Source: a virus (lineage: Duplodnaviria; Heunggongvirae; Uroviricota; Caudoviricetes). Taken from it: a stretch of 64,000 nucleotides of DNA. The stretch lies in IMG/VR virus record IMGVR_UViG_3300042922_000286, positions 1-64,000 of that record, one strand, 5' to 3'. This document shows, one piece after another, positions 5,751 to 29,955 of the stretch. Position 1 is the first letter of the stretch. The number at the start of each line of letters is the position of its first letter. The position numbers and the translations under genes were made by a program. The notes below the pieces were generated by a model. It was not told the DNA's origin. It saw only the letters and a program-made list of their open reading frames with translations, and did not search any database.

Positions 5751-5793
5751 CTTACAATGAACCTATACGGCAGGTACTACCGTTAGTTTAGGG
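5751..5793 (-). promoter_or_regulatory. Conserved bipartite promoter-like element, copy 1 (transcribed strand: CCCTAAACT-N15-CGTATAGGTTCATTGTAAG).
   Basis: Core on plus at 5751-5769 and box AGTTTAG at 5785-5791, with an exact 15-nt spacer. The spacer contains GGTAGTACC. Confidence 0.5.
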
Positions 5794-5799
5794 CTGTAA

Positions 5800-5831
5800 T
5801 GAAAAAGTTCCCGAGAGGATATCCCGGGAAC
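5800..5831 (-). terminator. Terminator after nrdF (hairpin GTTCCCG..CGGGAAC).
   Basis: 7-bp stem at 5807-5813 and 5825-5831 around a palindromic loop, with AAAAA at 5801-5805 giving the U-run on the minus transcript. Confidence 0.5.
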
Positions 5832-5836
5832 ATTAC

Positions 5837-6865
5837 TTATACTGCTATGTCTCCAAACACATCAATGATCTCATGCTGGAAGTGCTCATCCCTGATCTTC
5901 TCCACGTTGAGTGCGAGAACATACCCGTTGCCCCGCACCGAGAAGAAGTCATGGTTGACCGTAACAGTATCAATACCGTTCAGCACAATCGGGTTAATGT
6001 CCCTGTCCGTTATGTTGAACTTTGGTTCCAACCCGAGATTGGCCAAAGCTTTATCCGCGTTGTATTTGAGGAATGTGATTACCTCATCCACCAGCTCTAC
6101 CTCAGCGTACAAATCGTGGGTATAAGTTAGCTCATTTTGGTGCAGACTGTTAAGGAGGGAGTACACATCCCTCTTTGTATCCTCCTTCTCTTCGTCAGGG
6201 ATTTTAGCAAAGGCTTCTTGTGCGTACATACCCACCAGAAGGCCGTGAATGCTTTCATCCCTGATAATTAGCCCAATGACTTCGCCAGAGGCCGTCATTT
6301 GCCCTTGACCTGCCAGATAGAGAGGATAGAAGAATCCACTATAAAACAGGTAGCTTTCCAGCAGCACAGATGCAGCCAGCGCCATATAATACTCGCGCGG
6401 GGTGAGTACGCCTAGCACGTAGCTCATCAACGCACGTCTATAATAGATGTCGATGATTTCCGTTTTACGTTGTAGGTTCGGTTGGCGGTCGCCCCATGTA
6501 AATACTTCGTTGATCTCTTCCTGTGTAAGCAGGGTGGTGAAGATGGAGCTATACGACTTGGCGTGAACCGCCTCCATAGCCCCCATGAAGTTCAACACAG
6601 CTTTGCGCTGCTCTCCCTCGGTCATGAGGGAGATAACAGGCATACCAGTGTTCGTCTGCTTCGTATCCAGCCCTGTGAGGCCCACAAGAACCCGGGAGTA
6701 TACTCTACGTTGGGCAGGCTGTAGATTGTGCCATACGATCAAATCATCGCTCACAGGGAAGTCCTTATCCAGCCAAAACTGGGCCACATTCTGATCCCAA
6801 AACTCCTGAGTATAGTCGTCCTCGGGTCTATTCCAGTTTACTGCTTTGTATTGTGTTTGCTCCAT
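5837..6865 (-). CDS. nrdF: Ribonucleotide reductase class Ib small (beta) subunit.
   Basis: Ferritin-like di-iron motifs (RDESIHG; FYSGFFYPLYL). Confidence 0.85.
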   Translation of the reverse strand: MEQTQYKAVNWNRPEDDYTQEFWDQNVAQFWLDKDFPVSDDLIVWHNLQPAQRRVYSRVLVGLTGLDTKQTNTGMPVISLMTEGEQRKAVLNFMGAMEAVHAKSYSSIFTTLLTQEEINEVFTWGDRQPNLQRKTEIIDIYYRRALMSYVLGVLTPREYYMALAASVLLESYLFYSGFFYPLYLAGQGQMTASGEVIGLIIRDESIHGLLVGMYAQEAFAKIPDEEKEDTKRDVYSLLNSLHQNELTYTHDLYAEVELVDEVITFLKYNADKALANLGLEPKFNITDRDINPIVLNGIDTVTVNHDFFSVRGNGYVLALNVEKIRDEHFQHEIIDVFGDIAV

Positions 6866-6881
6866 GTGATTAAATTCCCCC

Positions 6882-8990
6882 TTATACCGCGCAAGCTACG
6901 CATTCTGTGCTTTCCTCACCGACCGGTGCCTTAACGTCCTTTTTCTTCACTCGGGTGTAGTATAGCGATCTTAAGCCCTTTTGAGCGGCGTAGATATAAT
7001 AACTAGCCAACTTCGCGGTAGAGATGTCCTGCTGCACGAATAGAACCGTGCTGATGCCTTGATCGATATGCTCTTGAATGACCGCCACCATATCAATGAC
7101 CTTCTTCATGTCAGTGTTGTATGCCGACTTGAAGAACCACTGATTATCCGCGCAAAGATGTGGGGCAGGGTAGAAGGTCTTACTGTTCGCGTACGTACGA
7201 GTCTCAATTAGATCGACCAGCGGAAGTACGGAACTAGTCGCGTTCTGAACATAGCTGATGGATTGAGTGGGGGCGATAGCAAGGCGATAAGCATGGTACA
7301 GACCGTACTGCATAACATCGTAGGACAGAGCTTTCCAGTCGGCAGGGGTAGGGATGTAAATTCCCTCGAACAGCGCCTTTACCTTATCCGACTTAGGGTA
7401 GTAGTTATTTACAAGATACTTCTGGAAGTACGAACCGTCCGCATAGTCCGACTGATTGAAGTCCTTGAATGTTTCTTTCATGGTTATTGCGAGCTGCATG
7501 GACCGCTCAATTGAGTAATAATTCATCATCATGAAGAATGTACGGGCAAAGTCGAGGGCTTCGAACGACTCATACATAATTTTGTTCTTGGCAAGGTAGC
7601 CATGCAAATCCATAGCACCTAAGCCAATGGAGTGCAGTTCTTCATTTGCCTTTCTCACGCCCGGGGCATTGTTGATGCTTGTTTCAGCGGATACTACAGT
7701 CAGAGCATCCACACCTTCATGTACCGATTCCCGAATCTTTTTAGATTCCATGACATTCGTGATATTAAGGGAGCCGAGGTTACATGAGATATCCCGTTTG
7801 ATGATATCCTCGACGGTGTAGTCGTTAATAACCGATACCTCTTGAAGCTGCATTATCTCGGTGCAGAGGTTAGACATAAGCACCCGCCCGATACGATTCA
7901 ACGCATGCTTCTTGTTAGCGTTCGTGATGTTGAAGATGTACGGATAGCCCGACTGCATCTGAGTCTGTGCGATCTTGTTTAAGAAGTCGCGGGCGTTCAT
8001 GATAAGCTCCTTACGGATGCGAGGGTCATTAAGCAACGCATCATACATCGTATCGAAGTCAATGTCGGTCATTCTCAGGCCGTAGTGTTTTTGAATATCG
8101 TACGGGCTGAAACCGTAGAAGTCTTGATCAGCCTCGGCTATTTCGTAGAACTTCTGTGGAACTGTAAGGCCGATAGACAGTTGCTTCAAACGAATGTTAT
8201 CGTCAGCGTTGACCTTCTTCGTATCAAGCAGCCGCCCTGCGTCAATGTGGAAGATGGTCACGTAGGACGCCCCTGCGCCCTTACGCTGGCCTCCCTGATC
8301 GTAGTAGCTGAACTTCTGCTCCATCTGCTTGGCAACGCCTACGATGCCCTTAGCAGCGTTTTCCAGCCCCTTAATAGGGTCGGATAGAGCACGGAGGTTG
8401 GATAGATCGCAAGCCACCCCGCCACCGATACGGCTCAGTTGCGCCATACATGCGAGGTTATATTCGATGGAATTTGTAGTGTCGTCCATAGTCAGTAGGA
8501 AACATGAAACCATTTCTCCACGGCGAGAGCGTCCCGCGTTGAGGTAGGTAGGGGTTGCTGGTTGGTATCGCTGCTCCATCAAGGACCGAACCAGTCTCTC
8601 TGCCTTCTTCAGCCTACCTTTGCCCAAGTGAAGCGCGACAATGGCATTGTGTTCAGCAAAGCTTTCAAGGTAGGTTTTCTTATCGTTCGATTTCAGGCCG
8701 TAGTCCGTATAGAACTTGTAGGCTTGCATGAAGGACTTGAACTTGAAGTCGTAGCTATATGCGATAAGATGGATATATTCAACCTGATCTTCGGTGTATT
8801 TCTGGTGCACGTCCTCGTAGAAGTCATTCTCAACCATCCACTTGATACGCTCAGTGATATTGTTGAATTTCATTGAGCGACTTTCTACTTCCTTCATAAA
8901 CTCCACTACGGCCTCACGGTCTTTGTCCAGTTGGAAGAAGCCATCCTCTCCGCGTTGAGTAACCATGTTGTTAAGCTCGATATACTTCAA
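6882..8990 (-). CDS. nrdE: Ribonucleotide reductase class Ib large (alpha) subunit.
   Basis: 702 aa with the NLCTEIMQ active-site motif and C-terminal cysteines (ECVACAV). Confidence 0.85.
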   Translation of the reverse strand: MKYIELNNMVTQRGEDGFFQLDKDREAVVEFMKEVESRSMKFNNITERIKWMVENDFYEDVHQKYTEDQVEYIHLIAYSYDFKFKSFMQAYKFYTDYGLKSNDKKTYLESFAEHNAIVALHLGKGRLKKAERLVRSLMEQRYQPATPTYLNAGRSRRGEMVSCFLLTMDDTTNSIEYNLACMAQLSRIGGGVACDLSNLRALSDPIKGLENAAKGIVGVAKQMEQKFSYYDQGGQRKGAGASYVTIFHIDAGRLLDTKKVNADDNIRLKQLSIGLTVPQKFYEIAEADQDFYGFSPYDIQKHYGLRMTDIDFDTMYDALLNDPRIRKELIMNARDFLNKIAQTQMQSGYPYIFNITNANKKHALNRIGRVLMSNLCTEIMQLQEVSVINDYTVEDIIKRDISCNLGSLNITNVMESKKIRESVHEGVDALTVVSAETSINNAPGVRKANEELHSIGLGAMDLHGYLAKNKIMYESFEALDFARTFFMMMNYYSIERSMQLAITMKETFKDFNQSDYADGSYFQKYLVNNYYPKSDKVKALFEGIYIPTPADWKALSYDVMQYGLYHAYRLAIAPTQSISYVQNATSSVLPLVDLIETRTYANSKTFYPAPHLCADNQWFFKSAYNTDMKKVIDMVAVIQEHIDQGISTVLFVQQDISTAKLASYYIYAAQKGLRSLYYTRVKKKDVKAPVGEESTECVACAV

Positions 8991-9381
8991 TGCTTCTCAC
9001 CCCTAATGTGAATTTTTCTACATCAACATCCGACCCTGATAGTTCGAATTTCAAGATGATTGGGACACCGTACCTATCCGCTATCAGATCAGCCGCCTTG
9101 CAGTAGTTGTTCCCCCAATTTCTATTCCCACTCGACGCAACCCCACGCATGAATGTATGATTGCTTTCAAGGAACTCGCCTGTCGAAACGGCAACGCGAC
9201 CAAAGCCAGTAGTGTAAGTGACTAAAACAAAAGGTTCGTGGACCACAAGCCCCTTACCAATCTTTATGTAAGGTAACCCGGTCTTGTCTACGAACCTTTC
9301 TACGTTTCCTGTTCTTGTGTCAAATACCACTAACATAGGTCGTTGAGGTAATAGATAGTATAGAACGCAATCACTGTTCAC
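8971..9381 (-). CDS. nrdI: NrdI flavodoxin-like protein.
   Basis: MLVVFDTRTGNVERF...LVTYTTGFG...GVASSGNRNWG...FELSG match NrdI signatures. The start is uncertain: GTG at 9381 or ATG at 9336. Confidence 0.65.
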   Translation of the reverse strand: MNSDCVLYYLLPQRPMLVVFDTRTGNVERFVDKTGLPYIKIGKGLVVHEPFVLVTYTTGFGRVAVSTGEFLESNHTFMRGVASSGNRNWGNNYCKAADLIADRYGVPIILKFELSGSDVDVEKFTLGVRSIEVYRA

Positions 9382-9742
9382 TATCCGCTTTCAGCTTCCG
9401 TAATTCGATCAGTTCCTCGACAAGGGAGTAGAAATCTCTGTCCTCAAGGACGAAGTAGTCCTTGGTGTCCCCGAACGAAAAAGCGAGGGCGGGCATCTTA
9501 TCAGTTCCGAAGGTTTCTTCCTTGATTTTGTCGAGCCATTCCTTCTGAACCGTAATTGATTTCTGCCCTGCCTTCGCTCTAGTTTTAGCCTCTATGCGAA
9601 ACAGCTTTGATACAACATCGCTCTTGGCGAACCATAAAGCTCCCGACGCCATCTGCCGCCGCGCTTCGTCTCCGAGCTGCTTTAAGTTCTTAGTTATTCT
9701 CCCTTCTTGTCTCTTTGAAACTAGCTGATTTCGTGTTGTCAT
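9371..9742 (-). CDS. Hypothetical protein.
   Basis: Internal ATG at 9742 has a strong RBS AGGGAGGG; the ORF track extends to 9778. Confidence 0.35.
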   Translation of the reverse strand: MTTRNQLVSKRQEGRITKNLKQLGDEARRQMASGALWFAKSDVVSKLFRIEAKTRAKAGQKSITVQKEWLDKIKEETFGTDKMPALAFSFGDTKDYFVLEDRDFYSLVEELIELRKLKADSEQ

Positions 9743-9950
9743 TCGGAACCCTCCCTGCTGTGACACGTTCTGACACACTGATGATGATACCCTCTGCGAT
9801 GGTGTCCCCGTGCTTTTCTATCACCTGTTCAGCTACCTTTCGGTCGAAGCGCAAGTGCAGCCACTCTACTAAGAACATGAAACCGTACTTGAAGAGGGCG
9901 GCGAGTGCCAAGCTGACACTCGCGCAGATCGCTACTGTGTACCAAGTCAT
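9690..9950 (-). CDS. Hypothetical small membrane protein.
   Basis: N-terminal TM helix. It starts 2 nt after the recA stop and overlaps the next ORF by about 53 nt, so it is uncertain. Confidence 0.3.
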   Translation of the reverse strand: MTWYTVAICASVSLALAALFKYGFMFLVEWLHLRFDRKVAEQVIEKHGDTIAEGIIISVSERVTAGRVPNDNTKSASFKETRRENN

Positions 9951-9951
9951 A

Positions 9952-11061
9952 TTAAGCAGCGCCCCTTAGAAGTTGATTAACCTGTTCGTACATCTTCGGT
10001 ACGATATACCCGCCCGCTTGGAAGTCTGCCGCGAGAGCTTCCTTCGTCTTAGGTACACCGTTCCATTTGTATTCTTCTTTTGTCTCAGGGTTAGTAAGCG
10101 CCTCACCCGTCGATGGGTCAATCCACTTCAACCAACCTGCGCCTGTTAGGATGTTCAACTCTTTGGCTACGTGAACCAATTCATTGATAGAGTCAAGCCC
10201 TGTCTCGTAGTACATATCGATAACAGCCACTTTATGGGGAGCCGCCACCTTGTTCTTCGAGATCTTACACTTGATCTGATTACCATGAACGACCTTCGCG
10301 TTACCAGAACCGGTAGAGAAGTAATCACCCTTCGAAACTTCAATGTTGATGGTTGCGGCATGTTTGAGCGATCTACCGCCCGATGTAGTCGTAGGCGTAC
10401 CGTACATCGAGAATCCACCGATCTTGTCGCGAAGCTGATTGATGAAGACGAGCGTAGTTCCCGACTTCGTAAGCAGCCCACTGTTGACGAGCTTACGCAT
10501 AGCCTTCGAGTTGATCTTCGAAGCCCCGCCTACGCGACTCTCCTTGTCCCAATCCTCTTGTTCAAACTCGTCCTTAGGAATCAGCCCGTCAACGGAGTCC
10601 AGCCCGATGATGCTATACTTGCCGCTCTGCAACATAAACTCGATCATCTTGTAAATGTTCTCAGCGTAAGTGTCAGGCTGCGTAATCATCAGGCGCTTCA
10701 AGTCCACCCCGAGCTTCTGCGCCCATATAGGGTCGTAGGAATGTTCGAGATCGATGATGGCGCACATCTTGTCAGGTTCTAACGCCTGAGCCTGTGCTAT
10801 CGCAAGATTCAGGATCGTCGTCTTACCTGAGGATTCTGCGCCATGCAGCCCGATAAGCCGACCGTGGGGAAGCCCTCCACCAAGAGCGATATCAAGCATC
10901 AAGGAGCCTGATGGACGCATCTTGATATTAGCCAACCGTTCCTCTTTACCTAGAATGAACATTGACTGCGGCCCGAACTCCTTACGAATCTCGGCTAGGA
11001 GCTTATCCTGCTCTGTATAGAAGTCGGTAATGTTCGTCTTTTCTTCATTTGCTACCGCCAT
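9952..11061 (-). CDS. recA: RecA-family recombinase.
   Basis: SGSLMLDIALGGGLPHGRLIGLHGAESSGKTT, FINQLRDKIG and the remainder align by eye with RecA over its full length. Confidence 0.8.
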   Translation of the reverse strand: MAVANEEKTNITDFYTEQDKLLAEIRKEFGPQSMFILGKEERLANIKMRPSGSLMLDIALGGGLPHGRLIGLHGAESSGKTTILNLAIAQAQALEPDKMCAIIDLEHSYDPIWAQKLGVDLKRLMITQPDTYAENIYKMIEFMLQSGKYSIIGLDSVDGLIPKDEFEQEDWDKESRVGGASKINSKAMRKLVNSGLLTKSGTTLVFINQLRDKIGGFSMYGTPTTTSGGRSLKHAATINIEVSKGDYFSTGSGNAKVVHGNQIKCKISKNKVAAPHKVAVIDMYYETGLDSINELVHVAKELNILTGAGWLKWIDPSTGEALTNPETKEEYKWNGVPKTKEALAADFQAGGYIVPKMYEQVNQLLRGAA

Positions 11062-11070
11062 TCAACCACC

Positions 11071-11397
11071 TCACAGGTTATCTTTTACTTTGCTGTACTT
11101 CACCTTATAGAACCCATGCTTATCCGTCCTGACCGTAGCACTTTCCCCGCACCCGTTGGAGATCGAACCTTTCTCCAAACGATTGGCTTGTAGGAAGTTG
11201 ATGAAGTCATGCTCTACGAAGTTCTCGAAGTCCTTGACCGCCTTAGGGGGAGAAGAAGGGAGGGTCGGTTCGACATCCTCCCTCAGCATTTCCTCCATAA
11301 TTTCAGGGGTCAGCTTCTCAGGCATATACCACTGAACATTAGGATGGGTCACGCTTCCCACTCTCCGCTCACAGAGTCGATGGAGATACGGTTCCAC
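11071..11397 (-). CDS. Hypothetical protein.
   Basis: ORF in operon context. Confidence 0.3.
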   Translation of the reverse strand: MEPYLHRLCERRVGSVTHPNVQWYMPEKLTPEIMEEMLREDVEPTLPSSPPKAVKDFENFVEHDFINFLQANRLEKGSISNGCGESATVRTDKHGFYKVKYSKVKDNL

Positions 11398-11567
11398 CCA
11401 CTCTTAACGATTTCGAGCTTACCGTCAGCCTTGATGTAGTGGCTGTAGTCGTTCGGCTTCGTCATAACTTCGGTGACGTTCTTCAAGGTTACAGGGTTCC
11501 CGTAGTCATAGTAGTACGTACGGGACTTCTCGTTTACCTTACGGACTTTGTTCACTTGTTCGGTCAT
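11349..11567 (-). CDS. Hypothetical protein.
   Basis: ORF in operon context; overlaps its neighbour. Confidence 0.3.
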   Translation of the reverse strand: MTEQVNKVRKVNEKSRTYYYDYGNPVTLKNVTEVMTKPNDYSHYIKADGKLEIVKSGWNRISIDSVSGEWEA

Positions 11568-11570
11568 TGG

Positions 11571-11966: not shown

Positions 11967-12234
11967 TGTTATTCCCCCTGATTGGTAGTTTTAGATTGGC
12001 GTTGCACTTCTCACATCGACCGTATATAACTATTGGGTCGATACCGCATGTGCGGCATTTCATTACCCCGCCCCTGATGCTCCCGGGTTCCACTACAGCA
12101 GTGAATTCCACGTCTTTGACAGGTATACGCTTTTCCTCGCCTGTCTTTAGGTCTGTCAGAATCATGGTGGCGTTTTTAGCCACGAATTTCTTAGGCAATG
12201 TCATGAGTTTCTCGCTATAGCTGCGTTCGCCCAC
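11959..12234 (-). CDS. Hypothetical zinc-ribbon protein.
   Basis: CRTCG...CEKC cysteine pairs. Confidence 0.35.
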   Translation of the reverse strand: MGERSYSEKLMTLPKKFVAKNATMILTDLKTGEEKRIPVKDVEFTAVVEPGSIRGGVMKCRTCGIDPIVIYGRCEKCNANLKLPIRGNNNV

Positions 12235-12325
12235 ATTACCGCCTGTTCGAGGTTTGTCATGGCTAACGACTTCTCTCGGCTGTCAGGGCAGTTGTTGTCG
12301 ATAACATCGTACGGATTAGGCTTGC

Positions 12326-12868
12326 TCATGCTTGTAACCCCCTGTTTATACCGCGGCGAGTGTCCTCAAGATCACTGCCACGTCGAGATATTTCGCGGCT
12401 GATAGCGTAAGCGCGTTGTTCGTAGCCTTCACGGAGCGCCCGGGTCGCTGTGTACATCGACAGCGCCTCCGTATATTTCAATTCCCATTCGAGATAGAGA
12501 GGCTCACAGTATACTGAGGCGTCCCTAATCTCCCGGTTGCCTTCCTGAACAGTGTAGAGTTGCTTCTTCACCACGTCCCGCACCTCTTCGGCGGTGGAAC
12601 GGTCGATGTCAGCAATTGCCTCGCACCATCTTGCGTAGGACACCATTCCTGTCCAACGGTCAAGGAACTCACCAAGCTCGTTGTATGGAATGTTAGCAAT
12701 GCCGCCGTAGCGCCGCCGCACGTTGTCCCACTCTTGGAACAAGTCCGTTCCGGTTACTGCATCCTCAGGCTTGGGAGGTACAGGCAACCCTGCTCGTTGG
12801 ATTTTGTCCATCGTGGCCCTACGACTGACGAATAGCTTGACGCCTTCGACAATCTCATATCGCTGCAT
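12326..12868 (-). CDS. Hypothetical protein.
   Basis: ORF with coding-like composition. Confidence 0.35.
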   Translation of the reverse strand: MQRYEIVEGVKLFVSRRATMDKIQRAGLPVPPKPEDAVTGTDLFQEWDNVRRRYGGIANIPYNELGEFLDRWTGMVSYARWCEAIADIDRSTAEEVRDVVKKQLYTVQEGNREIRDASVYCEPLYLEWELKYTEALSMYTATRALREGYEQRAYAISREISRRGSDLEDTRRGINRGLQA

Positions 12869-12886
12869 TCAGCGCTCACCCTACCT

Positions 12887-13882: not shown

Positions 13883-14155
13883 TTACGCGAGGGAGGCAAA
13901 TTCGTGCTCAAACTCGCGCTGACGCTCGGCCATCTTCTCGCGGTTGGGGAGATTCACAAGACCCAGTTGGGCGAGGCGGCGAAGGCTCCGGGTGATGGAC
14001 TCAGCAGACGTTGCACGACTGAGTACATCTACGTTCGTTGCGCTGTCATAGATCGTCCAATAGTAGCGGAGAAGCTCGTTTCGGTCGAACAGCAGGTTAG
14101 GGAATGCAGTTACCAGTTCCAGCAGATTCTTACGGATGTTTTTGTGATTTTTCAC
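13883..14155 (-). CDS. Hypothetical protein.
   Basis: The ORF-track start at 14209 would translate the conserved promoter core itself. The GTG at 14155 is preferred because it has RBS GGAGTGA. Confidence 0.35.
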   Translation of the reverse strand: MKNHKNIRKNLLELVTAFPNLLFDRNELLRYYWTIYDSATNVDVLSRATSAESITRSLRRLAQLGLVNLPNREKMAERQREFEHEFASLA

Positions 14156-14183
14156 TTTTGATTCACTCCGTTTCGTGTGTTGT

Positions 14184-14227
14184 TTGCTTACACTGAACCT
14201 ATACGCCACGACCTCGGCTCAGTTTAT
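14184..14227 (-). promoter_or_regulatory. Conserved bipartite promoter-like element, copy 2 (ATAAACT-N15-CGTATAGGTTCAGTGTAAGCAA).
   Basis: Core at 14184-14205 and box AGTTTAT at 14221-14227 with a 15-nt spacer. Confidence 0.5.
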
Positions 14228-14232
14228 ATGCC

Positions 14233-19780: not shown

Positions 19781-19824
19781 TTGCTTACACTGAACCTATA
19801 CGCGACCAGATCAGACCAGTTAAG
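19781..19824 (-). promoter_or_regulatory. Conserved bipartite promoter-like element, copy 3 (CTTAACT-N15-CGTATAGGTTCAGTGTAAGCAA).
   Basis: Core at 19781-19802 and box AGTTAAG at 19818-19824 with a 15-nt spacer. Confidence 0.5.
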
Positions 19825-19830
19825 GTTTGG

Positions 19831-19876
19831 AAAAAAAGAAAAAAGCGCCCTCTCGGGAGCGCCTTATTTTTCTTTG
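19831..19876. terminator. Bidirectional rho-independent terminator (A-run, GC hairpin GCGCCCTCTCGGGAGCGCC, T-run).
   Basis: GC-rich hairpin at 19845-19863 flanked by 14 A and TTATTTTTCTTT. It terminates the SPFH unit on the minus strand. Confidence 0.6.
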
Positions 19877-21750: not shown

Positions 21751-21795
21751 GCCTTACACTGAACCTATACGACAAGGGTAGGGGTGAGTTTAGGG
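21751..21795 (-). promoter_or_regulatory. Conserved bipartite promoter-like element, copy 4 (CCCTAAACT-N15-CGTATAGGTTCAGTGTAAGGC).
   Basis: Core at 21751-21771 and box AGTTTAG at 21787-21793 with a 15-nt spacer. Confidence 0.5.
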
Positions 21796-21819: not shown

Positions 21820-21852
21820 ATAAAAAACCCCCTGATTCAGCATCAGGGGGAG
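21820..21852 (-). terminator. Terminator after gene 21858..22055 (hairpin CCCCCTGAT-loop-ATCAGGGGG).
   Basis: 9-bp stem at 21828-21836 and 21842-21850, with AAAATAAAAAA on plus giving the U-run on the minus transcript. Confidence 0.6.
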
Positions 21853-21857
21853 TTGAT

Positions 21858-22055
21858 TTATAGCTGTATGTTTATCTTATTATTGCATGACCTACACCTT
21901 ATAGTTAGTACTCCGCTGTAGTCCGAGTAGGTTACGTCAAACCCCTCGATTTCATGAATAGGGAACGTAATAAGTCCCTTAGTTGTAGAGAGAGCGCTTT
22001 CGCCCACAGCCTCAACGATACCTATACTGTTGCATGAACAAATCAACCTCACCAT
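21858..22055 (-). CDS. Hypothetical small protein.
   Basis: ORF between the sigma gene and the terminator. Confidence 0.3.
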   Translation of the reverse strand: MVRLICSCNSIGIVEAVGESALSTTKGLITFPIHEIEGFDVTYSDYSGVLTIRCRSCNNKINIQL

Positions 22056-22068: not shown

Positions 22069-22632
22069 TCACATCTGGTTATATTTGGACTTGATCTTCG
22101 ACCATATCTGTGACATTCGGGACTTAGTTACACCAATCACCTTGGCGATCTCGACAAACTCGTAACCTTCCACATATAACTGGAAGATTTGCTTCTCCCG
22201 GTCTGTCAGCCCCATATTGTTCATGACATCCATCATGACTTCGGCGTTCTGATAACCGTAGTCAATAGAGCCGACTTGAAGCGTAGATCGCTCGTCACTA
22301 CCGAGCTCACTTGGGTCATAATTAACTACGATCTCGTCAGCATTTACTACCATGAGATTCTTGCCACTTCCGCACTTGCGCAGGCAGTCACGGATCATAT
22401 TCTCGATAACGTGGTCAACGTAAGTGCTCATTCTACTCGTCTCGCTATTGTAGAGATCAAGCGATCGATATACCTTGAAGACAGTTTCTTGTACAACGTC
22501 CTCAGTGTCCATTCCTGCGAAGCGCTTAGAGCCGATCTTCGCCGCAGTGTGTTTTTGCACTTTTTCTAGGAACAGGTCCATGTCGCCCGTAGCGAACAGT
22601 TCGTCATAGGTCATTGTCGTATTCATTGTCAA
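22069..22632 (-). CDS. Small phage-encoded sigma factor (ECF-like/group 4 sigma-70 family).
   Basis: Region 2 (DVVQETVFKVYRSLDLYN...YVDHVIENMIRDCLRK) and a region 4 HTH (REKQIFQLYVEGYEFVEIAKVIGVTKSRMSQIW). Confidence 0.65.
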   Translation of the reverse strand: MTMNTTMTYDELFATGDMDLFLEKVQKHTAAKIGSKRFAGMDTEDVVQETVFKVYRSLDLYNSETSRMSTYVDHVIENMIRDCLRKCGSGKNLMVVNADEIVVNYDPSELGSDERSTLQVGSIDYGYQNAEVMMDVMNNMGLTDREKQIFQLYVEGYEFVEIAKVIGVTKSRMSQIWSKIKSKYNQM

Positions 22633-22657: not shown

Positions 22658-23752
22658 TCACTTGCTTAGTTTAGGTCTTTTCAGTTCTTCTATAACACTA
22701 TTAGGAACCTGACTCCTAAAGGTTAAGAATGGTACGACCTTGATCTTCTTCATCATTTTGAATTTCAGAAGATCATTGGCATCTTTATAGGGGAGTTCCT
22801 CTGTATCTACGGTGTCGATGCCCCAATGTCCACCCGGGTACATAACCACATTCACCTTGATCGGCGTCTTGGATAAAAGTTCGTACGTCTTGAGCGTACA
22901 ATCAACCCCCGCCTTGTCGTTATCGAAGAAGAGGTTGACGGTTTTAATCCCGGCCAGTAGGAACTCTCGAAGCTGTTCTTCGAAGAGAATCCGTCCAAGA
23001 ATAGCTACGGCGGGCAACCCTGACTCGTAACAAGACATCGTATCGGTTTCCGACTCGTTCACGAATACTTCGGTTATCTTATATGGGCTTTGTGAGAGGT
23101 AGTACAGCCCATACAGGATATCCTTCTTGTATATGTTCTTCTCGTTGAGGAAGGATTTCGTCAAGACGTTCCTTCTCTTGATGAAGCGAACCAGCCCTTT
23201 ACTCGTTCTGACCGGGAACGTAATGGAATTGGATTGCTCATCGTACCCGATCTCGTATTTACGTAAGGTGCGATCACTGAATCCGCGACTGGTAATATAT
23301 GAATGCTTCTTGCTTGTGTACTTTGTCACCTCGGATTCAGGTAAAGACCGTTTCCTGTCCAGCTTGTTCCCCCCATCAATGATACTACGTATGTCCAACT
23401 TTTTTCTGTCTTTTACGGACAGCACGATGTAGTGTTTTTGAATGTAGTGTAGACCGTGAATCTCTGACGGTAGCTCCATGACGTGAGCGATTAGCTTGCC
23501 GAGACTTCCTGACTCACCGCACCCAAAACAGTTGAACGTATACGGGTACTGTGTGAGGATACCGAAGGACGGCGATTCCTCTTCGTGGTACGGACAGCAG
23601 CACATTATGTTCTCACCTTTGTTTGATGTCTTGTCAAAGGCGCTAACATTATACAGCACTTGTTTGCCCGATCTCCACGACAACATTAAGTCGTCAAGCA
23701 TCTCTTCTACGTCAATATGTACCGCCGAAAGTATATCCGACAATTCCCACAC
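22658..23752 (-). CDS. DNA primase (DnaG-like: CHC2 zinc finger plus TOPRIM).
   Basis: CCPYHEEESPSF...CFGCGESGS zinc-binding domain; TOPRIM EV..ESETDTMSC...FFDNDKAG. The start is uncertain (GTG at 23752 or TTG at 23743). Confidence 0.8.
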   Translation of the reverse strand: MWELSDILSAVHIDVEEMLDDLMLSWRSGKQVLYNVSAFDKTSNKGENIMCCCPYHEEESPSFGILTQYPYTFNCFGCGESGSLGKLIAHVMELPSEIHGLHYIQKHYIVLSVKDRKKLDIRSIIDGGNKLDRKRSLPESEVTKYTSKKHSYITSRGFSDRTLRKYEIGYDEQSNSITFPVRTSKGLVRFIKRRNVLTKSFLNEKNIYKKDILYGLYYLSQSPYKITEVFVNESETDTMSCYESGLPAVAILGRILFEEQLREFLLAGIKTVNLFFDNDKAGVDCTLKTYELLSKTPIKVNVVMYPGGHWGIDTVDTEELPYKDANDLLKFKMMKKIKVVPFLTFRSQVPNSVIEELKRPKLSK

Positions 23753-23800: not shown

Positions 23801-23829
23801 TTGACAAATATAGCACCCTGTTCATAATC
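23801..23829 (+). promoter_or_regulatory. Consensus sigma-A-type promoter on the plus strand (TTGACA-N17-CATAAT), facing the minus-strand promoter and antisense to upstream genes.
   Basis: TTGACA at 23801-23806, a 17-nt spacer and CATAAT at 23824-23829. The two TTGACA boxes form an inverted repeat, TTGACA..N24..TGTCAA. Confidence 0.5.
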
Positions 23830-23836
23830 CTGTCAA
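23807..23836 (-). promoter_or_regulatory. Sigma-A-type promoter on the minus strand (TTGACA-N18-TATATT) driving the primase-sigma operon; candidate early promoter.
   Basis: On the minus strand TTGACA is at 23836-23831 and TATATT at 23812-23807. Confidence 0.55.
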
Positions 23837-23908
23837 TAAATTATTTCGACACAAAGTAATGCCAAATACCTATGCTGTGTCGAATGATACTAACTAGACT
23901 ATTAATAA

Positions 23909-23953
23909 CCCCTACACTAACCATATACGATAGGTACTACCATAAGTTTAGGG
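23909..23953 (-). promoter_or_regulatory. Conserved bipartite promoter-like element, copy 5 (CCCTAAACT-N15-CGTATATGGTTAGTGTAGGGG).
   Basis: Core at 23909-23929 and box AGTTTAG at 23945-23951 with a 15-nt spacer. The spacer contains GGTAGTACC. Confidence 0.45.
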
Positions 23954-23969
23954 CAGGGGTTAAATTATT

Positions 23970-25016: not shown

Positions 25017-25064
25017 TCTTTTAATGCTTTGTCTTATTTGTCATATCCGTAAACTTGCGCAACC

Positions 25065-25343
25065 TCACACTTCACTGGATACAACACGGTAGCGATACAA
25101 TCGTTCAGAGATTTTTGTCATTTCAATATCGACAGTTCCCGCGCTGTGATTTATATGATAGGTCCAAGGCTCAATGATTCCAGTTATAACAAAGAGCCTG
25201 TTGGAGTATATCTCCCCATCGATTAGCTTCCACACATGCTCCCGGGCTAGGTGTAGCCGCCCGTTGAACTTTGGAACTACTTTGCCCGTTGTGCGATTCT
25301 TTATAACAAGAGTATCCTTATCAGAGAGCCGAAGGTAACCCAT
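25065..25343 (-). CDS. Hypothetical protein.
   Basis: ATG at 25343 with RBS AAGGGGGATG. Confidence 0.35.
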   Translation of the reverse strand: MGYLRLSDKDTLVIKNRTTGKVVPKFNGRLHLAREHVWKLIDGEIYSNRLFVITGIIEPWTYHINHSAGTVDIEMTKISERLYRYRVVSSEV

Positions 25344-25357
25344 TCTTTACATCCCCC

Positions 25358-25492
25358 TTATTCCTCATCGTCATCATCATCTGCTTCTTCATCTTGTTCG
25401 CTTTCTAGCGCCCCACAGTCGGGGCAAAAGCTCTCCTGACAGCAGGGACACTTCTCCCACCACGTCTTACATTCCCTACACCGGTCGCTCAC
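25358..25492 (-). CDS. Small zinc-ribbon protein with an acidic tail (not in the ORF track).
   Basis: GTG start at 25492 preceded by AGGAGG. Translation: VSDRCRECKTWWEKCPCCQESFCPDCGALESEQDEEADDDDDEE. Confidence 0.4.
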   Translation of the reverse strand: MSDRCRECKTWWEKCPCCQESFCPDCGALESEQDEEADDDDDEE

Positions 25493-25622
25493 CCTTATCA
25501 GCCTCCTGTTCATCAGGTATTAGATCGCCGCCGCAGAGGGGACAGTATCCGTCCCCGCAGCTTAGGCAACGCCTTACGAATTTCGTTCCGCAGTTCGCGC
25601 AGGTCAGTGGTATCGCGGTCAT
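25476..25622 (-). CDS. Small zinc-ribbon protein.
   Basis: Internal ATG at 25622 gives MTAIPLTCANCGTKFVRRCLSCGDGYCPLCGG.... The long N-terminal extension in the ORF track overlaps its neighbour and is likely spurious. Confidence 0.35.
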   Translation of the reverse strand: MTAIPLTCANCGTKFVRRCLSCGDGYCPLCGGDLIPDEQEADKGERPV

Positions 25623-25816
25623 TGAACTACAGACTCTTCCAAGATTAGGATGTTGACTGCTTGCACTTTCAGTAGTTCGGAGGGAAGCAGTTCGGCAGCT
25701 AGGGTGTGCCATGCCTCTTCCCATACCGCAGCGAAATCGTCTCCGTCGTAACAAGTAAATACCCCTGTTACGATATTCTCACGGTCGGTTGTATAGGTCA
25801 GTCTGAATGTCTTCAT
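25619..25816 (-). CDS. Hypothetical protein.
   Basis: ORF in operon context. Confidence 0.3.
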   Translation of the reverse strand: MKTFRLTYTTDRENIVTGVFTCYDGDDFAAVWEEAWHTLAAELLPSELLKVQAVNILILEESVVQ

Positions 25817-25819
25817 AGA

Positions 25820-26059
25820 CTAGAGTCCCCTTCCATGGATGTGTAGTTCGCTCTGATCGTCATCCTCTACGATTTCGCCAGTAGTAGTCCATTCGGCATC
25901 GTCGCCACTCATGAACTCATGAGGCAACTCGTCAGCACTCTGAATTTCCAGTCGCAGCTTTTCTTCGGTAGTGGCACCCTCAGGGTAGTACTCCGCGGGC
26001 GGCAACTCAAACTCCCGAGTGCATGTAATAGTTATTTTCACTTTTGCCATTTGTCCCAT
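25820..26059 (-). CDS. Hypothetical acidic protein.
   Basis: ORF in operon context. Confidence 0.3.
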   Translation of the reverse strand: MGQMAKVKITITCTREFELPPAEYYPEGATTEEKLRLEIQSADELPHEFMSGDDAEWTTTGEIVEDDDQSELHIHGRGL

Positions 26060-26064
26060 CCCCC

Positions 26065-26310
26065 TTATTGCCCCATACGATCAGGGCTTGTCGTCCAAGA
26101 GTAGTCACTACTATCCTTTTCGTACTGCTTGAACCGCTTAACAATCTGCTCCTGCAAGTACTTCTGTCGATCATCCGAGTTCATGAATGCTTCGTAAGGG
26201 AAGTACCCGATCATTTTCGCCATTCGGATAGTGAACTTGTCAATGCCCTCCAAGGTTTCTTTAGGAACCTCTTTCAGGATGGCCATCATTACGCCTCTGC
26301 TTCGGTACAT
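26065..26310 (-). CDS. Hypothetical protein.
   Basis: Start chosen at the internal ATG at 26310 with RBS AAGGGGGAG. This removes the 89-nt overlap with the helicase gene. Confidence 0.35.
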   Translation of the reverse strand: MYRSRGVMMAILKEVPKETLEGIDKFTIRMAKMIGYFPYEAFMNSDDRQKYLQEQIVKRFKQYEKDSSDYSWTTSPDRMGQ

Positions 26311-26323
26311 AGAATACTCCCCC

Positions 26324-27580
26324 TTAAAATACCATCTCATCTTCGGTCGTCGGTTCATATACCCCTGTATCGATGTCCGCTTTGAGGTATACATCCTCGT
26401 CCTTCTTACCACTGCGGTTCTTCTTCAACGACAGTTTGAATGTATCGCCAAGTCTACGGAGGGTGATCGCTCTTGTGGCCTTCTGTGCTGGGTTATCACT
26501 CTCTTGGATTTGATCGATCTCAGGGGTAGCTTGGGAGTTCTTACGAGCGTCCTTCGCCGCCTCCCGGCCCGCCTGTGCTAGAAGCATCGTCGGAGTCTTG
26601 GTTAGTAGGTTCATATCCCGTATCTCCCGAGTAACATTCACGATACGGCGTCGAATATCCCAATCCCCTTTGATATCCATGACGTCGTACAACTGGTCAA
26701 CGACTAGAAACGCGGGTTTCTCACTAGCTACGATGCCGTGAATGTCGGAGGTCTTGAACGGTGATCCACCATTCGACTCTTGGGATAGGATAAGGAACCC
26801 TGCGGACTCCTTCTGCAACTGCTCCAAGTATTCGAGGTATATCTGTGGGTCAGCCAGCTTACCATTCCTGAGCGCCATATTCGAGAAATGAGCCTTCATA
26901 CTATCGAGTCGGTATGAAACCTCAAGCTCCGACATCTCCGTTGATATAAAGGCAACGGGGCGGTTAATGTTGGCCTTCTTCAATGCCATCCAGACGTGGA
27001 AAGCAAAGAAGCCGCCGATTAAGGACTTACCTTCATTAAGGCGTCCCGCTAGAAGAATGAGATCGTCTTCCAACCATCCCCCTGTTAGCTCGTCAAGATC
27101 AGGTATGCCTGTAGGTAATCCAGCCATACCTTCCTTGCCGTGTTTCTTCATATATTCGTCGTAGCGACTGACTGCACTCTTTACCCAATCGTATGTGACC
27201 GCTTTGTTCGCATACTTCTGTAGGAGCGTGTCAATATCCCCACGAAGCTGGATCATGGATTCTAGCGTCTTGCCGTCATTGAGAAGCCCCGCGCCCCGTT
27301 CAAGAGCAGGAGCATATTCCGTGTAAGCCTTTTGCTCCTTTACCTGCTGGACAAGGTAGTCTACGGAGTCAAGATCAGCAAGTTTACGGAACTCATCGAA
27401 CTCGACAGCAACAAGATCAGGGGTCGGCAGAGCACCCCTGTTGGAGTTGCGGAAATCCTCGACCCACTTCACAACATCTTCCAAGGCAAAGAAGTAGGAC
27501 TGGTCGATTCCGTTCTTCGCCATGAATGCAGGGTCTTTGGTTACGAGCCAATGGTTGATAAGTTGCAGTTCTTCAATCAA
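26324..27580 (-). CDS. DnaB-family replicative DNA helicase.
   Basis: Walker A (LAGRLNEGKSL), Walker B (FLVVDQLYDV) and a DnaB-like N-terminal domain. TTG start. Confidence 0.8.
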   Translation of the reverse strand: MIEELQLINHWLVTKDPAFMAKNGIDQSYFFALEDVVKWVEDFRNSNRGALPTPDLVAVEFDEFRKLADLDSVDYLVQQVKEQKAYTEYAPALERGAGLLNDGKTLESMIQLRGDIDTLLQKYANKAVTYDWVKSAVSRYDEYMKKHGKEGMAGLPTGIPDLDELTGGWLEDDLILLAGRLNEGKSLIGGFFAFHVWMALKKANINRPVAFISTEMSELEVSYRLDSMKAHFSNMALRNGKLADPQIYLEYLEQLQKESAGFLILSQESNGGSPFKTSDIHGIVASEKPAFLVVDQLYDVMDIKGDWDIRRRIVNVTREIRDMNLLTKTPTMLLAQAGREAAKDARKNSQATPEIDQIQESDNPAQKATRAITLRRLGDTFKLSLKKNRSGKKDEDVYLKADIDTGVYEPTTEDEMVF

Positions 27581-28046
27581 GGTTCTTCACTCTCCGTTCA
27601 AAGAAGAGAGTCAGTTCGGCAAGCGTTCGACCAATCTCGGCCACCGCTTCTTCGTGGGTATTGAATACAACAAGTACAGTTCTGTCGTGAACAGCCGCCC
27701 ACTTGTCGCCTTCAACCCACTCCACTCCGAATACCCCGCAGATATGGAACACAAGATTCGAACGTCTAAAGTCTAATGTGTTCCCATTTTTGTGAGCAAG
27801 TCGTGCCCCCTTAGGGATTCCTCCGTTAAAGAACACCTCGTAGAAACTTACGTAGTCACGTCTGCCTTCTGTATTGAGGTATCCTTGAATCCACTGTTTG
27901 CCCCCGGGTCGGGATATGACCCAAGTATTAGGGAACGAACCGCAACGCTCTAGGTCACTTATGTCGATAATAAGTGGGTGAACTTCACCTTTGTGCGTGA
28001 TAAGGATATGCGCTTCGTCATTATGAATCTCTACTTTGTTCTTCAT
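27573..28046 (-). CDS. HNH endonuclease (HNH_3 type), free-standing.
   Basis: AHKNGNTLDFRRSNLVFH matches the HNH motif H-x-N-G-N-x-x-D-N-R-x-x-N-L. Confidence 0.6.
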   Translation of the reverse strand: MKNKVEIHNDEAHILITHKGEVHPLIIDISDLERCGSFPNTWVISRPGGKQWIQGYLNTEGRRDYVSFYEVFFNGGIPKGARLAHKNGNTLDFRRSNLVFHICGVFGVEWVEGDKWAAVHDRTVLVVFNTHEEAVAEIGRTLAELTLFFERRVKNLD

Positions 28047-28762
28047 CCGAACAGCCTCCTATCTTTACCACCAAGCTCGATAGGCATGGCGTTCATCAAC
28101 ATCCGAGAGAATATTCTAGAACCCATGGTTTTCTTCAACTGCTCCAACCCGAAGTTCGATGTGTAGAGCGTGGCAAGCCCGTTGTTCACTCGATAGTTCA
28201 GCAGGAGGTACGTCTGTTCTAAGGCAAAGTCGGATAGTGTCCCTGCCCCCACGTCATCAAGCATCAGGAACGGGGTATCCCGCATTTGCTGCATAGTTTC
28301 GACCACATCAGCGTCCTCCCTGCGGTAACGTAGATCGTCTATGATGGTGGCGAACTCAACAAACATACCGAGCGGTAATTCGAAGTCAAACCTTCTGCCC
28401 GTGCAGGTCTTGTAGATGAAGTGATTCAGAAGGGTAGCTCCCGCGTACGTTTTGCCTGTCCCGGTTCCCTGATTAAAGATCAGGAAGTTCGTCCCTCTAT
28501 CCACCACCGCCACAATACCTTCTACTGCGGGCTCGATGTCGTTATAGAATGCGATCTTGTTGTCCTCATCCACTCTGAAGTTGTGGATATTGGCCGTCAG
28601 GTACACCTTCGGGATGCGTGATAGTTCGAGCGCCTTGTACAGGCGGTATTGGGCATTACACCAGCTAACAGGGGCATCAGGGCGTAATGGAACTTTTCCG
28701 CTGTACGCATTGCAGAATGGAGCAGCTATGCATGACTCACAAAACTCATACGGCGGCATCAT
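28043..28762 (-). CDS. DnaC/DnaI-like AAA+ helicase loader.
   Basis: Walker A (NQGTGTGKTYAG) and Walker B (LMLDDVG); adjacent to the helicase. Confidence 0.7.
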   Translation of the reverse strand: MMPPYEFCESCIAAPFCNAYSGKVPLRPDAPVSWCNAQYRLYKALELSRIPKVYLTANIHNFRVDEDNKIAFYNDIEPAVEGIVAVVDRGTNFLIFNQGTGTGKTYAGATLLNHFIYKTCTGRRFDFELPLGMFVEFATIIDDLRYRREDADVVETMQQMRDTPFLMLDDVGAGTLSDFALEQTYLLLNYRVNNGLATLYTSNFGLEQLKKTMGSRIFSRMLMNAMPIELGGKDRRLFG

Positions 28763-29886
28763 TGAACACCTCCGAGAAGCTGCGCCCGCCGCCTTGCCGC
28801 CAAGTCTGCGAACTCATCTTTCGTTTCCTGCGAATCCTCCTGTGGTGCAAGGTTGCTTTGCTTCTTGCGGTCGAAGCTACCCGTGTTAAGGTACTGGGTA
28901 ATCATCCCTTGTACAAAGTTGGAGCAGAAGTTCGAGATGCCTTTAGGGGAGAAGAAGTCGCTATCAATATAAACCTCGATTCTTCGTTTAAGAAGCTCCC
29001 TGCCGTTGTACGGCTTACCCTCTACTTCCATCTCTCCATACAGGTCGATCAGCTTCTTTAACTGCCCGCGTTCTTTCATGCCAGCGCCGATCATCGGTAG
29101 TTTCATTACTTCGAGGTACTTATCCGCAAAGTAAGAAGTGAAGTGATTGGTGTTCCAGTCCTCGACAGGCACATTCCGCCATGAAGTATGCTTCCTACCG
29201 CTCGATGCCTTTTCAGGCTTGCTCGGGTCAGCTTCCCGCCGAATCTCATCGGCGTTCACAGGTGCAGCGGTTATACGTCTAGGCATCCCGGGGACATGTT
29301 GTGGTATTTCAGGTTGAGGTTTGTAGACCACAGGCTCCGACACAGGCAGCAGTGTTTCCCCTGCAAAGTACGCTTGGAAGAACTTTTCAATCGTCGCTTC
29401 ATGCCCTACAGGGTTTTTGTTTGCCTTGTCACATAGCGAGGTTTTCTTATAGGTTTCAAGAGCCTTGAAGGTATTCTCACCATGTTCCTTCCTGTACTGC
29501 TCCAATACCTCATGAACAAACTCAGAGTGTGCTACCGTCGGTATAGTGTGTAGCTCTGACAAGTGATACACGTAATTCCCGCCACCCGTCCGCTCAAGCG
29601 CAATTAACCTTGCATCACGCAGTTCGTAGGTGAACTTTCTTATCGTGTTCTTGCACCACCCTAGTTGTAGACGAAGTGCCAACTGACTAGGGAAGCAGTC
29701 ACGCTTACCGTTGAACGCATACTCCGAGATGTTAGTGTAAAGTTGCTTTGCTTCCGACGACAGGAATAGACAGCGGTTCACCTTACTGTAGGTAAGAGAA
29801 TGACCGCGGTTTGGCCCTTCGTTATAGAGGAACTCTTTTTCGGACGAAGCGAACTTTAAGCTAAACTCGTTGTATTCGTTATCCAT
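28759..29886 (-). CDS. Putative replication initiation/replisome organizer protein (DnaD-like winged-helix N-terminus).
   Basis: Position upstream of the loader and helicase, and a winged-helix-like N-terminal region. Weak. Confidence 0.4.
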   Translation of the reverse strand: MDNEYNEFSLKFASSEKEFLYNEGPNRGHSLTYSKVNRCLFLSSEAKQLYTNISEYAFNGKRDCFPSQLALRLQLGWCKNTIRKFTYELRDARLIALERTGGGNYVYHLSELHTIPTVAHSEFVHEVLEQYRKEHGENTFKALETYKKTSLCDKANKNPVGHEATIEKFFQAYFAGETLLPVSEPVVYKPQPEIPQHVPGMPRRITAAPVNADEIRREADPSKPEKASSGRKHTSWRNVPVEDWNTNHFTSYFADKYLEVMKLPMIGAGMKERGQLKKLIDLYGEMEVEGKPYNGRELLKRRIEVYIDSDFFSPKGISNFCSNFVQGMITQYLNTGSFDRKKQSNLAPQEDSQETKDEFADLAARRRAQLLGGVQ

Positions 29887-29911
29887 TTATCAAGCTCCCT
29901 TCTGTGCCCCT

Positions 29912-29955
29912 TTGCTTACACTTGCCCTATACGACCTCCGCGAACATTAGTTAAG
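29912..29955 (-). promoter_or_regulatory. Conserved bipartite promoter-like element, copy 6 (CTTAACT-N15-CGTATAGGGCAAGTGTAAGCAA).
   Basis: Core at 29912-29933 and box AGTTAAG at 29949-29955 with a 15-nt spacer. It lies 25 nt upstream of the initiator gene. Confidence 0.5.

Follow-up and report, generated by a model that had tools for sequence, protein, structure and literature searches.

In 2016, Berg et al. described in the Brevibacillus phages Jenst and SecTim467 a promoter-like motif, found in 19-20 copies by FIMO, that lies upstream of replication, nucleotide-metabolism and transcription genes and is absent from the host genome (PMC4909266). These authors suggested a phage sigma factor and left the question open; their work was computational only, and neither an extracytoplasmic function (ECF) label nor a particular sigma factor was attached to the motif (PMC4909266). 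Here, we analysed a six-copy bipartite element located in positions 1 to 64,000 of IMG/VR virus record IMGVR_UViG_3300042922_000286, a tailed virus (Caudoviricetes); the whole of this 64,000-nucleotide stretch is hereafter referred to as the window. The six copies punctuate the replication and nucleotide-metabolism genes of the window, and the evidence presented below suggests, with a probability that we put at roughly 0.65, that they are read by a phage-encoded sigma factor, sigma-1, whose gene lies among them. This kind of element was already noticed in Jenst and SecTim467, and occurs here with a different -10 sequence.

Jenst and SecTim467 are also the nearest cultured relatives of the window phage (virion protein 58.6% identical); gene order and structural proteins are shared with Jenst, and the two genomes measure 126-130 kb, next to 124.7 kb for the contig that carries a 100%-identical sigma-1. 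On the gene strand of Jenst we found 13 copies of GCAACT-N16-C(G/C)ACCATA-nnn-AGTGTAAGG which, like the window copies, display an AAC in the -35 box and AGTGTAAG at the same offset from the 'CG' of the -10 box. A 'sigma-24' gene directly follows the Jenst primase gene, and its product is a distant homologue of sigma-1 (hhalign probability 95.8%, E = 8e-9). The differences concern the -10 box (CGACCATA in Jenst, CGTATAGG in the window), the bases preceding AAC (GC instead of CT or TT), the spacer, which is 1 nucleotide (nt) longer, the sigma, which is only 26% identical to sigma-1, and the replication module, which is inverted relative to the structural genes. Because the -10 sequences differ, we regard the Jenst and window motifs as the same kind of element and not as the same motif. 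When compared by blastn with cultured phages, the Jenst promoter matched only Jenst and SecTim467. Bacillus phage Basilisk is said to share the Jenst motif (PMC4909266); in the 50 kb of Basilisk that we scanned, the bipartite pattern was absent and AGTGTAAG did not occur in a promoter context.

In phages phiEco32 and 7-11, a divergent phage sigma with middle and late promoters of its own redirects the host polymerase to a few near-identical phage promoters (TAATGTATA), and the early genome part is expressed from host-sigma promoters (PMC4331800). The likeness to the system proposed for the window lies in a phage-encoded sigma that is distantly related to the host sigmas, while the difference lies in their single-box promoters of about 9 bp, devoid of a -35 element, and in the phages themselves, which are lytic podoviruses of enterobacteria. 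Bacillus phage SPO1 runs a three-tier cascade, from sigma-A through gp28 (middle, replication genes) to gp33/34 (late), which resembles the one proposed below, but the gp28 consensus is AGGAGA / TTTNTTT and SPO1 is a lytic myovirus. The SPO1 sigmas are not known to be ECF-like or to show any detectable relationship to sigma-1. The SPO1 cascade was also cited by Berg et al. (PMC4909266).

Aligned on CGTATA and read on the minus (gene) strand, the six copies have the form (C/A)T(A/T)AACT-N15-CGTATAGGTTCAGTGTAAG, a 7-mer box and a core being separated by the same 15 nt in every copy, and they are present where an earlier reading of this DNA, made by a model from the letters alone (the sequence-only reading), had placed them on this strand. 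Copy 5 contains no insertion, its AGTG having the same offset as in the others. With at most 3 mismatches, the 19-nt core matched at 5 places, compared to 0.02 expected from shuffled sequences, the sixth being copy 5, which has more substitutions. In a scan with a weight matrix built from the six copies, these scored 48-56 bits, while the next best site on either strand reached only 6.4 bits; hence, the 64 kb hold exactly six copies and the tail-gene half is free of them, the sequence-only reading having likewise seen no full copy there. A chance origin of the six copies is excluded. The 15-nt spacers differ among the copies, except for a palindrome, GGTAGTACCT, common to copies 1 and 5, whereas the core is nearly invariant, and this combination of an unconserved spacer with a conserved core favours selection on the boxes over recent duplication.

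All six copies are intergenic and oriented with the gene strand, and they mark off six transcription units within the replication and nucleotide-metabolism region (Table 1). A ribosome-binding site and a start codon follow each of them, the start codon lying 22-46 nt from the end of the core (about 157 nt for copy 5), in agreement with the distances first reported, and 33-56 nt from the predicted transcription start site (166 nt for copy 5). Copies 1, 3 and 4 come directly after intrinsic terminators. The open reading frame (ORF) 13883-14209 does run through copy 2, as had been pointed out, the start codon endowed with a ribosome-binding site being a GTG further down; the GTG start assigned behind copy 3 is supported by a close relative (L001) that has ATG there. 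Copy 6 faces away from the recombinase gene, the only plus-strand gene recognised in the window.

In all six copies, (A/T)AAC(T) stands at -35 and the spacing is AAC-N16-CGTATA. Promoters of ECF sigmas carry AAC at -35 and CGT at -10, CGTA being the sigma-W-selective form of the latter, and an ECF sigma usually activates the operon that encodes it (PMC5758882); the promoter of B. subtilis sigW reads TGAAAC-N16-CGTATA (PMC5829568). The window elements share with sigma-W promoters the AAC-containing -35 box, the 16-nt spacer, the CGTATA -10 box and a copy placed before the sigma's own operon, since copy 5 lies upstream of the primase-sigma-1 operon, where by position it is predicted to act in autoregulation. 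They differ in reading T(T/A)AACT and not TGAAAC, in standing before phage replication genes, and in having an additional conserved box at +1. As sigma-A boxes, TAAACT and TATAGG would agree with the consensus at 3/6 positions at -35 and lack the final T at -10, and a consensus scan reported none of the six. Judged by their sequence, the elements look like ECF (group 4) sigma promoters rather than weak sigma-A promoters, and that they are promoters is in our view highly probable. The sequence-only reading had taken TATAGG as the -10 hexamer; across the relatives described below, the conserved box is (T)CGTATA, its GG extension is lineage-specific, and the upstream box is T(T/A)AACT. Its broader proposal, phage-specific promoters with a dedicated phage sigma or a conserved leader, holds computationally, with the box assignment and the sigma-70 geometry revised. 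It did not include the sigma-A promoter between copy 5 and primase, the palindrome in the spacers of copies 1 and 5, or the published motif of Jenst and SecTim467.

The proposed reader, sigma-1, has only the Pfam domains Sigma70_r2 and Sigma70_r4 and lacks regions 1.1 and 3, as ECF sigmas do. Its AlphaFold model (mean predicted local distance difference test score, pLDDT, 77.5) comprises two helical domains and a low-confidence linker, and the nearest solved structures are those of B. subtilis SigH and of ECF sigmas. We call sigma-1 ECF-like, and not a member of a named group, because it passes only the general sigma-70/ECF superfamily model TIGR02937 (1.9e-18), every specific family, SigW included, falling far below cut-off. 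The protein belongs to a small clade: in 1.84 billion representative proteins, 277 matched at E <= 1e-3, and 13 cluster representatives (50% identity) at E <= 1e-30; at E <= 1e-10, there were about 56 relatives of sigma-1. By tblastn against the phage collection, no cultured phage was found at E <= 1e-3.

Relatives of the window, from metagenomes, IMG/VR and bacterial genomes, surfaced only by protein search followed by family alignment. Neither megablast of 12 kb of the window nor blastn of a 52-nt window promoter gave a match among cultured phages, and exact-motif and single-protein scans of IMG/VR found nothing; 80 metagenome loci retained by the search encode distant sigmas (19-44% identity over the best matched segment) and were left out of the comparison. 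Several relatives share the order recombinase, replication genes, primase, sigma-1, SSB and polymerase. In six syntenic relatives (L002, L003, L004, L166, L167 and L169), with sigma-1 proteins 39-59% identical to that of the window, 3-7 sites each read T(T/A)AACT-N15/16-(T)CGTATA, and ECF-type sites are also found upstream of the sigma-1 operon in L002, L003 and L166 (with CGTATG as the -10 box in L003). Over the relatives, the gene strand has 36 occurrences of AAC-N15-17-CGTAT, compared to 5 for the other strand, mostly in intergenic DNA. An alignment of 21 relative sites, found by a pattern fixing AAC and CGTAT and filtered by eye, and giving figures that are indicative only, showed conservation also at positions free of the pattern, namely T at -21, T/A at -20, T at -16, T at -1 and A-G-T-G at +11 to +14. 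Placement upstream of gene-strand operons, and the retention of both boxes at the same spacing in relatives with an orthologous sigma, speak for the idea of a dedicated sigma.

The two most distant relatives with recognisable sites have kept CGTATA and have a different -35 box: L088, a Brevibacillus prophage, displays ATTGGATTC-N14-CGTATA at 4 sites (-35 box TGGATTC), and L086, a Paenibacillus prophage, CCTCTTCA-N17-CGTATA at 3 sites. In region 4.2, the recognition helix reads VSKSRVQQIW and VSASRVSQLW in L088 and L086, respectively, as compared to VTKSRMSQIW in the window. Such a shift of the -35 box alongside helix substitutions is how co-evolution between a phage sigma and its -35 box would look. 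At the other extreme, L001 differs from the window by only two changes near copy 3, both in the spacer; with intergenic regions 97-98% identical, it is too close to be used for footprinting.

Several observations weigh against sigma-1 as the reader, or temper the comparison on which this assignment draws: (i) conservation of the 19-nt core past the -10 box exceeds what a sigma needs, and another factor may bind there; (ii) the high information at AAC and CGTAT in the relatives is partly built in, because the search pattern fixed both; (iii) the link between helix and -35 box comes from two lineages, and L167 has a divergent helix (CSKANISIIW) yet keeps TTTAACT; (iv) no anti-sigma gene was recognised adjoining sigma-1, the following gene (21858-22055) encoding 65 amino acids (aa) with no Pfam match, with a 65-aa ORF at this place in L001 and none in L002 and L003; and (v) host sigma-W promoters have exactly this -10 box and this spacing, so that some of the sites, or all of them, could be served by a host ECF sigma. 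As regards (iv), an anti-sigma is absent for many ECF sigmas.

Point (v) is the core of the alternative that survives best, in which a host sigma of the sigma-W type reads the elements, the phage hijacks an envelope-stress regulon induced by infection, and sigma-1 has other targets. To the common hexamer, with its sigma-W-selective CGTA, and the common spacing can be added that CTAAAC is only two bases away from TGAAAC. However, the GAAAC of sigma-W promoters was seen in 0/6 window sites and 0/21 aligned relative sites (it is present at an excluded intergenic site, L169 8829), every relative with the motif also encodes sigma-1, and, in the case of Jenst, the host genome lacks the motif (PMC4909266). 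Moreover, the exchange of the -35 box for TGGATTC or CTCTTCA in distant relatives that keep CGTATA fits a co-evolving phage sigma better. We consider a host reader unlikely, and sigma-1 the preferred one.

Slightly less likely again is that the core, especially GGTTCAGTGTAAG, or the whole element is mainly the site of a phage regulator, a lysogeny repressor or an activator working at all six operons, overlapping or replacing a promoter. A precedent is known from SPbeta, in which SPBRE, a 15-bp repeat at ten promoter regions, is bound by the recombinase-fold repressor MrpR (PMC10516654). SPbeta, a large temperate Bacillales siphovirus, likewise has a short element that recurs, in its case in about ten intergenic promoter regions, and in the relative L003 an AimR-family gene is followed, as in arbitrium, by a 45-codon ORF in the place of the propeptide gene; SPBRE differs in being a 15-bp operator and not a bipartite oriented promoter. 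Also in favour of a regulator are the conservation of the core, which extends further downstream than a sigma requires, the weak MrpR_C_cat matches given by homologues of the plus-strand recombinase gene, and the loose inversion between the -35 and +1 boxes (CCCTAAACT versus the reverse complement CCTTACACT). The window recombinase itself, considered as an MrpR-type repressor, was rejected, as it is catalytically intact (RHSFATH, LLGH and IYT), matches XerC/XerD at 1e-39 to 1e-38 and has no MrpR match. The two main boxes are, in addition, unlike each other and strictly gene-oriented, which is typical of a promoter and not of a dimeric operator, the parts conserved across relatives are precisely the -35 and -10 boxes, and the window offers a better operator candidate in the palindrome GGTAGTACCT, which is confined to 2/6 spacers.

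This palindrome (AGGTA-S-TACCT) occurs exactly three times in the window, at 5772-5781, 23932-23941 and about 29984-29994, about 0.1 exact copies of a given 10-mer being expected by chance. All three lie in promoter spacers, those of copies 1 and 5 and that of the sigma-A-like promoter of the plus-strand recombinase gene. The promoter spacer is a classic position for a repressor operator, and GGTAGTACCT is, from its sequence and location, a candidate for such an operator; no CI-like gene was found adjoining the recombinase gene.

The window encodes a second, SigB/F/G-like sigma, sigma-2, of a class common in Bacillus phages (PMC9429907), and the elements could in principle be the promoters that it reads. 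We hold this to be very unlikely, as its gene lies at the far end of the region that the elements drive, just before the lysis genes, which is the position of a late regulator. The consensus promoters of SigF, SigG and SigB are unlike AAC-N16-CGTATA. SigB and SigF test promoters carry GTTTA at -35 (PMC5829568). Furthermore, a separate motif with a SigG-like -10 box, GTTAG-N17-19-TATACTA(G), constitutes a second candidate promoter class on the minus strand (35918-35947, 42962-42991, 41569-41600, 58626-58634 and 1441-1470), situated upstream of late/tail genes and, in a weaker variant, ahead of the holin gene; a search for the motif that tolerated one mismatch gave 4 matches compared to 0.22 expected. 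The CGTATA-only relatives of the six elements that had been listed near 1441-1470 and 42955-42975 do exist, but they fit this other class. As TATACTA resembles a SigG-type -10 box, sigma-2 may read the GTTAG class, and it is more likely that it serves these separate late promoters than the six elements. Immediately next to the annotated start codon of sigma-2, a TTG at 2685, lies a GC-rich hairpin with a poor T tail (2688-2715, minus strand), which might gate sigma-2 expression either as a leaky terminator or at the level of translation. Finally, that the elements, being repeated, highly similar and confined to one genome half, are not transcription signals but recombination, packaging or replication sites or remnants of small mobile repeats is barely credible in view of their strict gene-strand orientation, fixed start-codon distances, post-terminator placement and free spacer, their lack of the clustering or dyad symmetry expected of origins or recombination sites, and their retention at matching positions in relatives with diverged surrounding DNA.

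The conserved +1 box deserves separate consideration. Counting the C of the -10 'CG' as 0, AGTGTAAG occupies positions 11-18 in every window copy, copies 1 and 5 each having a single substitution in it. Jenst, and a part of the sites of L002, L004 and L166, show it at the same offset, which did not change as the sigma and the -35 and -10 boxes diverged. From promoter geometry and the pyrimidine/purine rule, the transcription start site should be A11 or G12, in which case GGTTCAGTGTAAG, the part of the core past the -10 box, would span the discriminator and the start site and take in the first 7-8 bases of the transcript. Positions 12-17 consist of a start codon and an adjoining stop codon in 6/6 window copies (GTG-TAA in four, TTG-TAA in copy 1 and GTG-TAG in copy 5) and in 17/55 sites from nine phages, with the variants TTG-TAG (L003) and TTG-TGA (L167). 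A Shine-Dalgarno-like run within positions 11-26 is present at another 22/55 sites; most of the sites without the box display such a run at this place. It is conceivable, though improbable, that this third box, A-GTG-TAA-G, acts on RNA, as a 5'-terminal start-stop mini-ORF on middle transcripts with a long leader; if this were true, a ribosome parked at the 5' end would shield the message from 5'-exonuclease or set its translation. The box could also reflect where the holoenzyme prefers to start, serve as a 5' tag for ribosome binding, or be bound by a further factor. Base-pairing between the -35 and +1 boxes, in RNA or as a cruciform, was also considered, as the arms are loosely complementary; the TAAACT and TTAACT copies share the same right arm, and the idea was dropped because the two arms do not covary.

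As the entry point of expression, we propose the near-consensus sigma-A promoter between copy 5 and primase, which is the only gene-strand sigma-A match of at least 10/12 in the intergenic DNA of the window. Sigma-A promoters occur at the equivalent place in L167 (two, 12/12), L087 (one, 12/12), and L166 and L169 (11/12). In the window, this promoter overlaps face to face with a plus-strand one (23801-23828), both scoring 11/12 as sigma-A-like, and transcription from the plus-strand promoter would be antisense, crossing copy 5 and entering the thymidylate synthase gene; the matching position in L003 holds its AimR-family gene and 45-codon ORF.

From the placement of these signals and the domains of sigma-1, we infer the following cascade. 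Host polymerase with sigma-A would fire the promoter at 23836-23807, and primase and sigma-1 would be transcribed. Sigma-1 would then join the host core enzyme, its region 4 binding CT(A/T)AACT and its region 2 binding and melting CGTATA, with the predicted start of transcription falling on the A or G of cAGTG, about 11-12 nt downstream of the C of CGTATA. The six units for replication, recombination and nucleotide metabolism, from 29886 down to about 2700, would thereby be switched on, copy 5 exerting positive feedback by driving sigma-1's own operon. The SigF/G-like sigma-2 would probably come next, followed by the late promoters. The elements are probably middle-class promoters of a Jenst-like siphovirus infecting Bacillales of the Brevibacillus/Paenibacillus group, a placement that we consider about as well founded as the assignment of sigma-1 as reader. 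The phage is probably temperate, because relatives are integrated in Paenibacillus, Brevibacillus and Anaerovirgula genomes.

Table 1. The six element copies and neighbouring features of the window (plus-strand coordinates)
Feature	Position	Strand	Upstream box	Core	First C of CGTATA	Score (bits)	Target or remarks
Copy 6	29912-29957	-	CTTAACT 29955-29949	CGTATAGGGCAAGTGTAAG 29933-29915	29933	48.2	ATG 29886, 36 nt from predicted start site; replication-initiator/DnaC/DnaB/thymidylate synthase block
Copy 5	23909-23953	-	CTAAACT 23951-23945	CGTATATGGTTAGTGTAGG 23929-23911	23929	51.5	Primase-sigma-1 operon; candidate autoregulatory promoter; most divergent copy; spacer with GGTAGTACCT
Copy 4	21751-21795	-	CTAAACT 21793-21787	CGTATAGGTTCAGTGTAAG 21771-21753	21771	53.6	SSB gene, ATG 21704; directly after terminator ending sigma-1 operon
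Copy 3	19781-19826	-	CTTAACT 19824-19818	19802-19784	19802	53.6	GTG 19754; block of 147-aa protein, DNA polymerase A, RNase H, Cas4-like exonuclease
Copy 2	14184-14229	-	ATAAACT 14227-14221	14205-14187	14205	54.4	GTG 14161; block through RuvC and UvsX-like recombinase to ribonucleotide reductase
Copy 1	5751-5793	-	CTAAACT 5791-5785	CGTATAGGTTCATTGTAAG 5769-5751	5769	56.1	GTG 5719; block of 145-aa protein, dUTPase, dTMP kinase, transglycosylase; spacer with GGTAGTACCT
Intrinsic terminator	5807-5831	-					10-bp stem and T run; ends ribonucleotide reductase operon, just upstream of copy 1
Intrinsic terminator	19842-19865	-					Just upstream of copy 3
Intrinsic terminator	21828-21850	-					Ends primase-sigma-1 operon; just upstream of copy 4
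Sigma-A promoter	23807-23836	-					TTGACA-18-TGcTATATT, near-consensus, between copy 5 and primase
Sigma-A-like promoter	29977-30006	+					TTGACA-18-TATGCT; for recombinase gene 30041-30880; GGTAGTACCT in spacer
DnaG-type primase	22658-23752	-					First gene of operon with sigma-1; true start may be TTG 23743
Sigma-1	22069-22632	-					187 aa, sigma-70 family, regions 2 and 4 only; 25 nt downstream of primase gene
Sigma-2	1834-2685	-					283 aa, SigB/F/G-like; end of middle region, just before lysis genes
XerC/D-like tyrosine recombinase	30041-30880	+					279 aa; between tail genes and replication module
Tape-measure and tail genes	63916 down to 30894	-					
Replication, nucleotide-metabolism and lysis genes	Downward from 29886	-					In order: replication initiator, DnaC-like loader, DnaB, thymidylate synthase, primase, sigma-1, SSB, Band-7 protein, DNA polymerase A, RNase H, Cas4-like exonuclease, RuvC, UvsX-like recombinase, ribonucleotide reductase, dUTPase, dTMP kinase, transglycosylase; then sigma-2, holin, endolysin

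Further features came to light in the relatives. L166 (8409-8610) and L169 (9483-9690) share about 200 nt of conserved non-coding sequence after the primase sigma-A promoter, with a terminator at the end; an ECF-type site follows in L166, and only CGTATA and then AGTGTAA in L169. This stretch, which may be a small RNA or a leader, has no counterpart in the window. A comparison of the window, L166 and L169 with Rfam revealed no known RNA family, and no tRNA genes were found in the window. In the middle region of L001, a 42-aa ORF (10119-10247) has a precomputed match to the Acb2/Tad1 hairpin family (anti-defence sponge), and corresponds, by gene order alone, to a 42-aa ORF at 12201-12329 of the window.

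Overall, the ECF-type reading, together with a named candidate sigma, provides a mechanistic reading for the motif of Jenst and SecTim467 that was left open in 2016. If correct, it amounts to a testable wiring diagram for an uncultured 125-kb Bacillales phage, leading from a host promoter to sigma-1, from sigma-1 to six operons, and from there probably to sigma-2 and the late genes. The sigma-1 clade would be a good system for the study of co-evolution between region 4 and the -35 box, and its -35 boxes, which differ by lineage (CTWAACT, TGGATTC, CTCTTCA and GCAACT) next to a similar -10 box, represent candidate orthogonal sigma/promoter pairs for synthetic biology in Gram-positive bacteria. 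The conserved +1 box is the sole part of the element that current knowledge of sigma factors and promoters does not explain, and the only feature that might be new biology.

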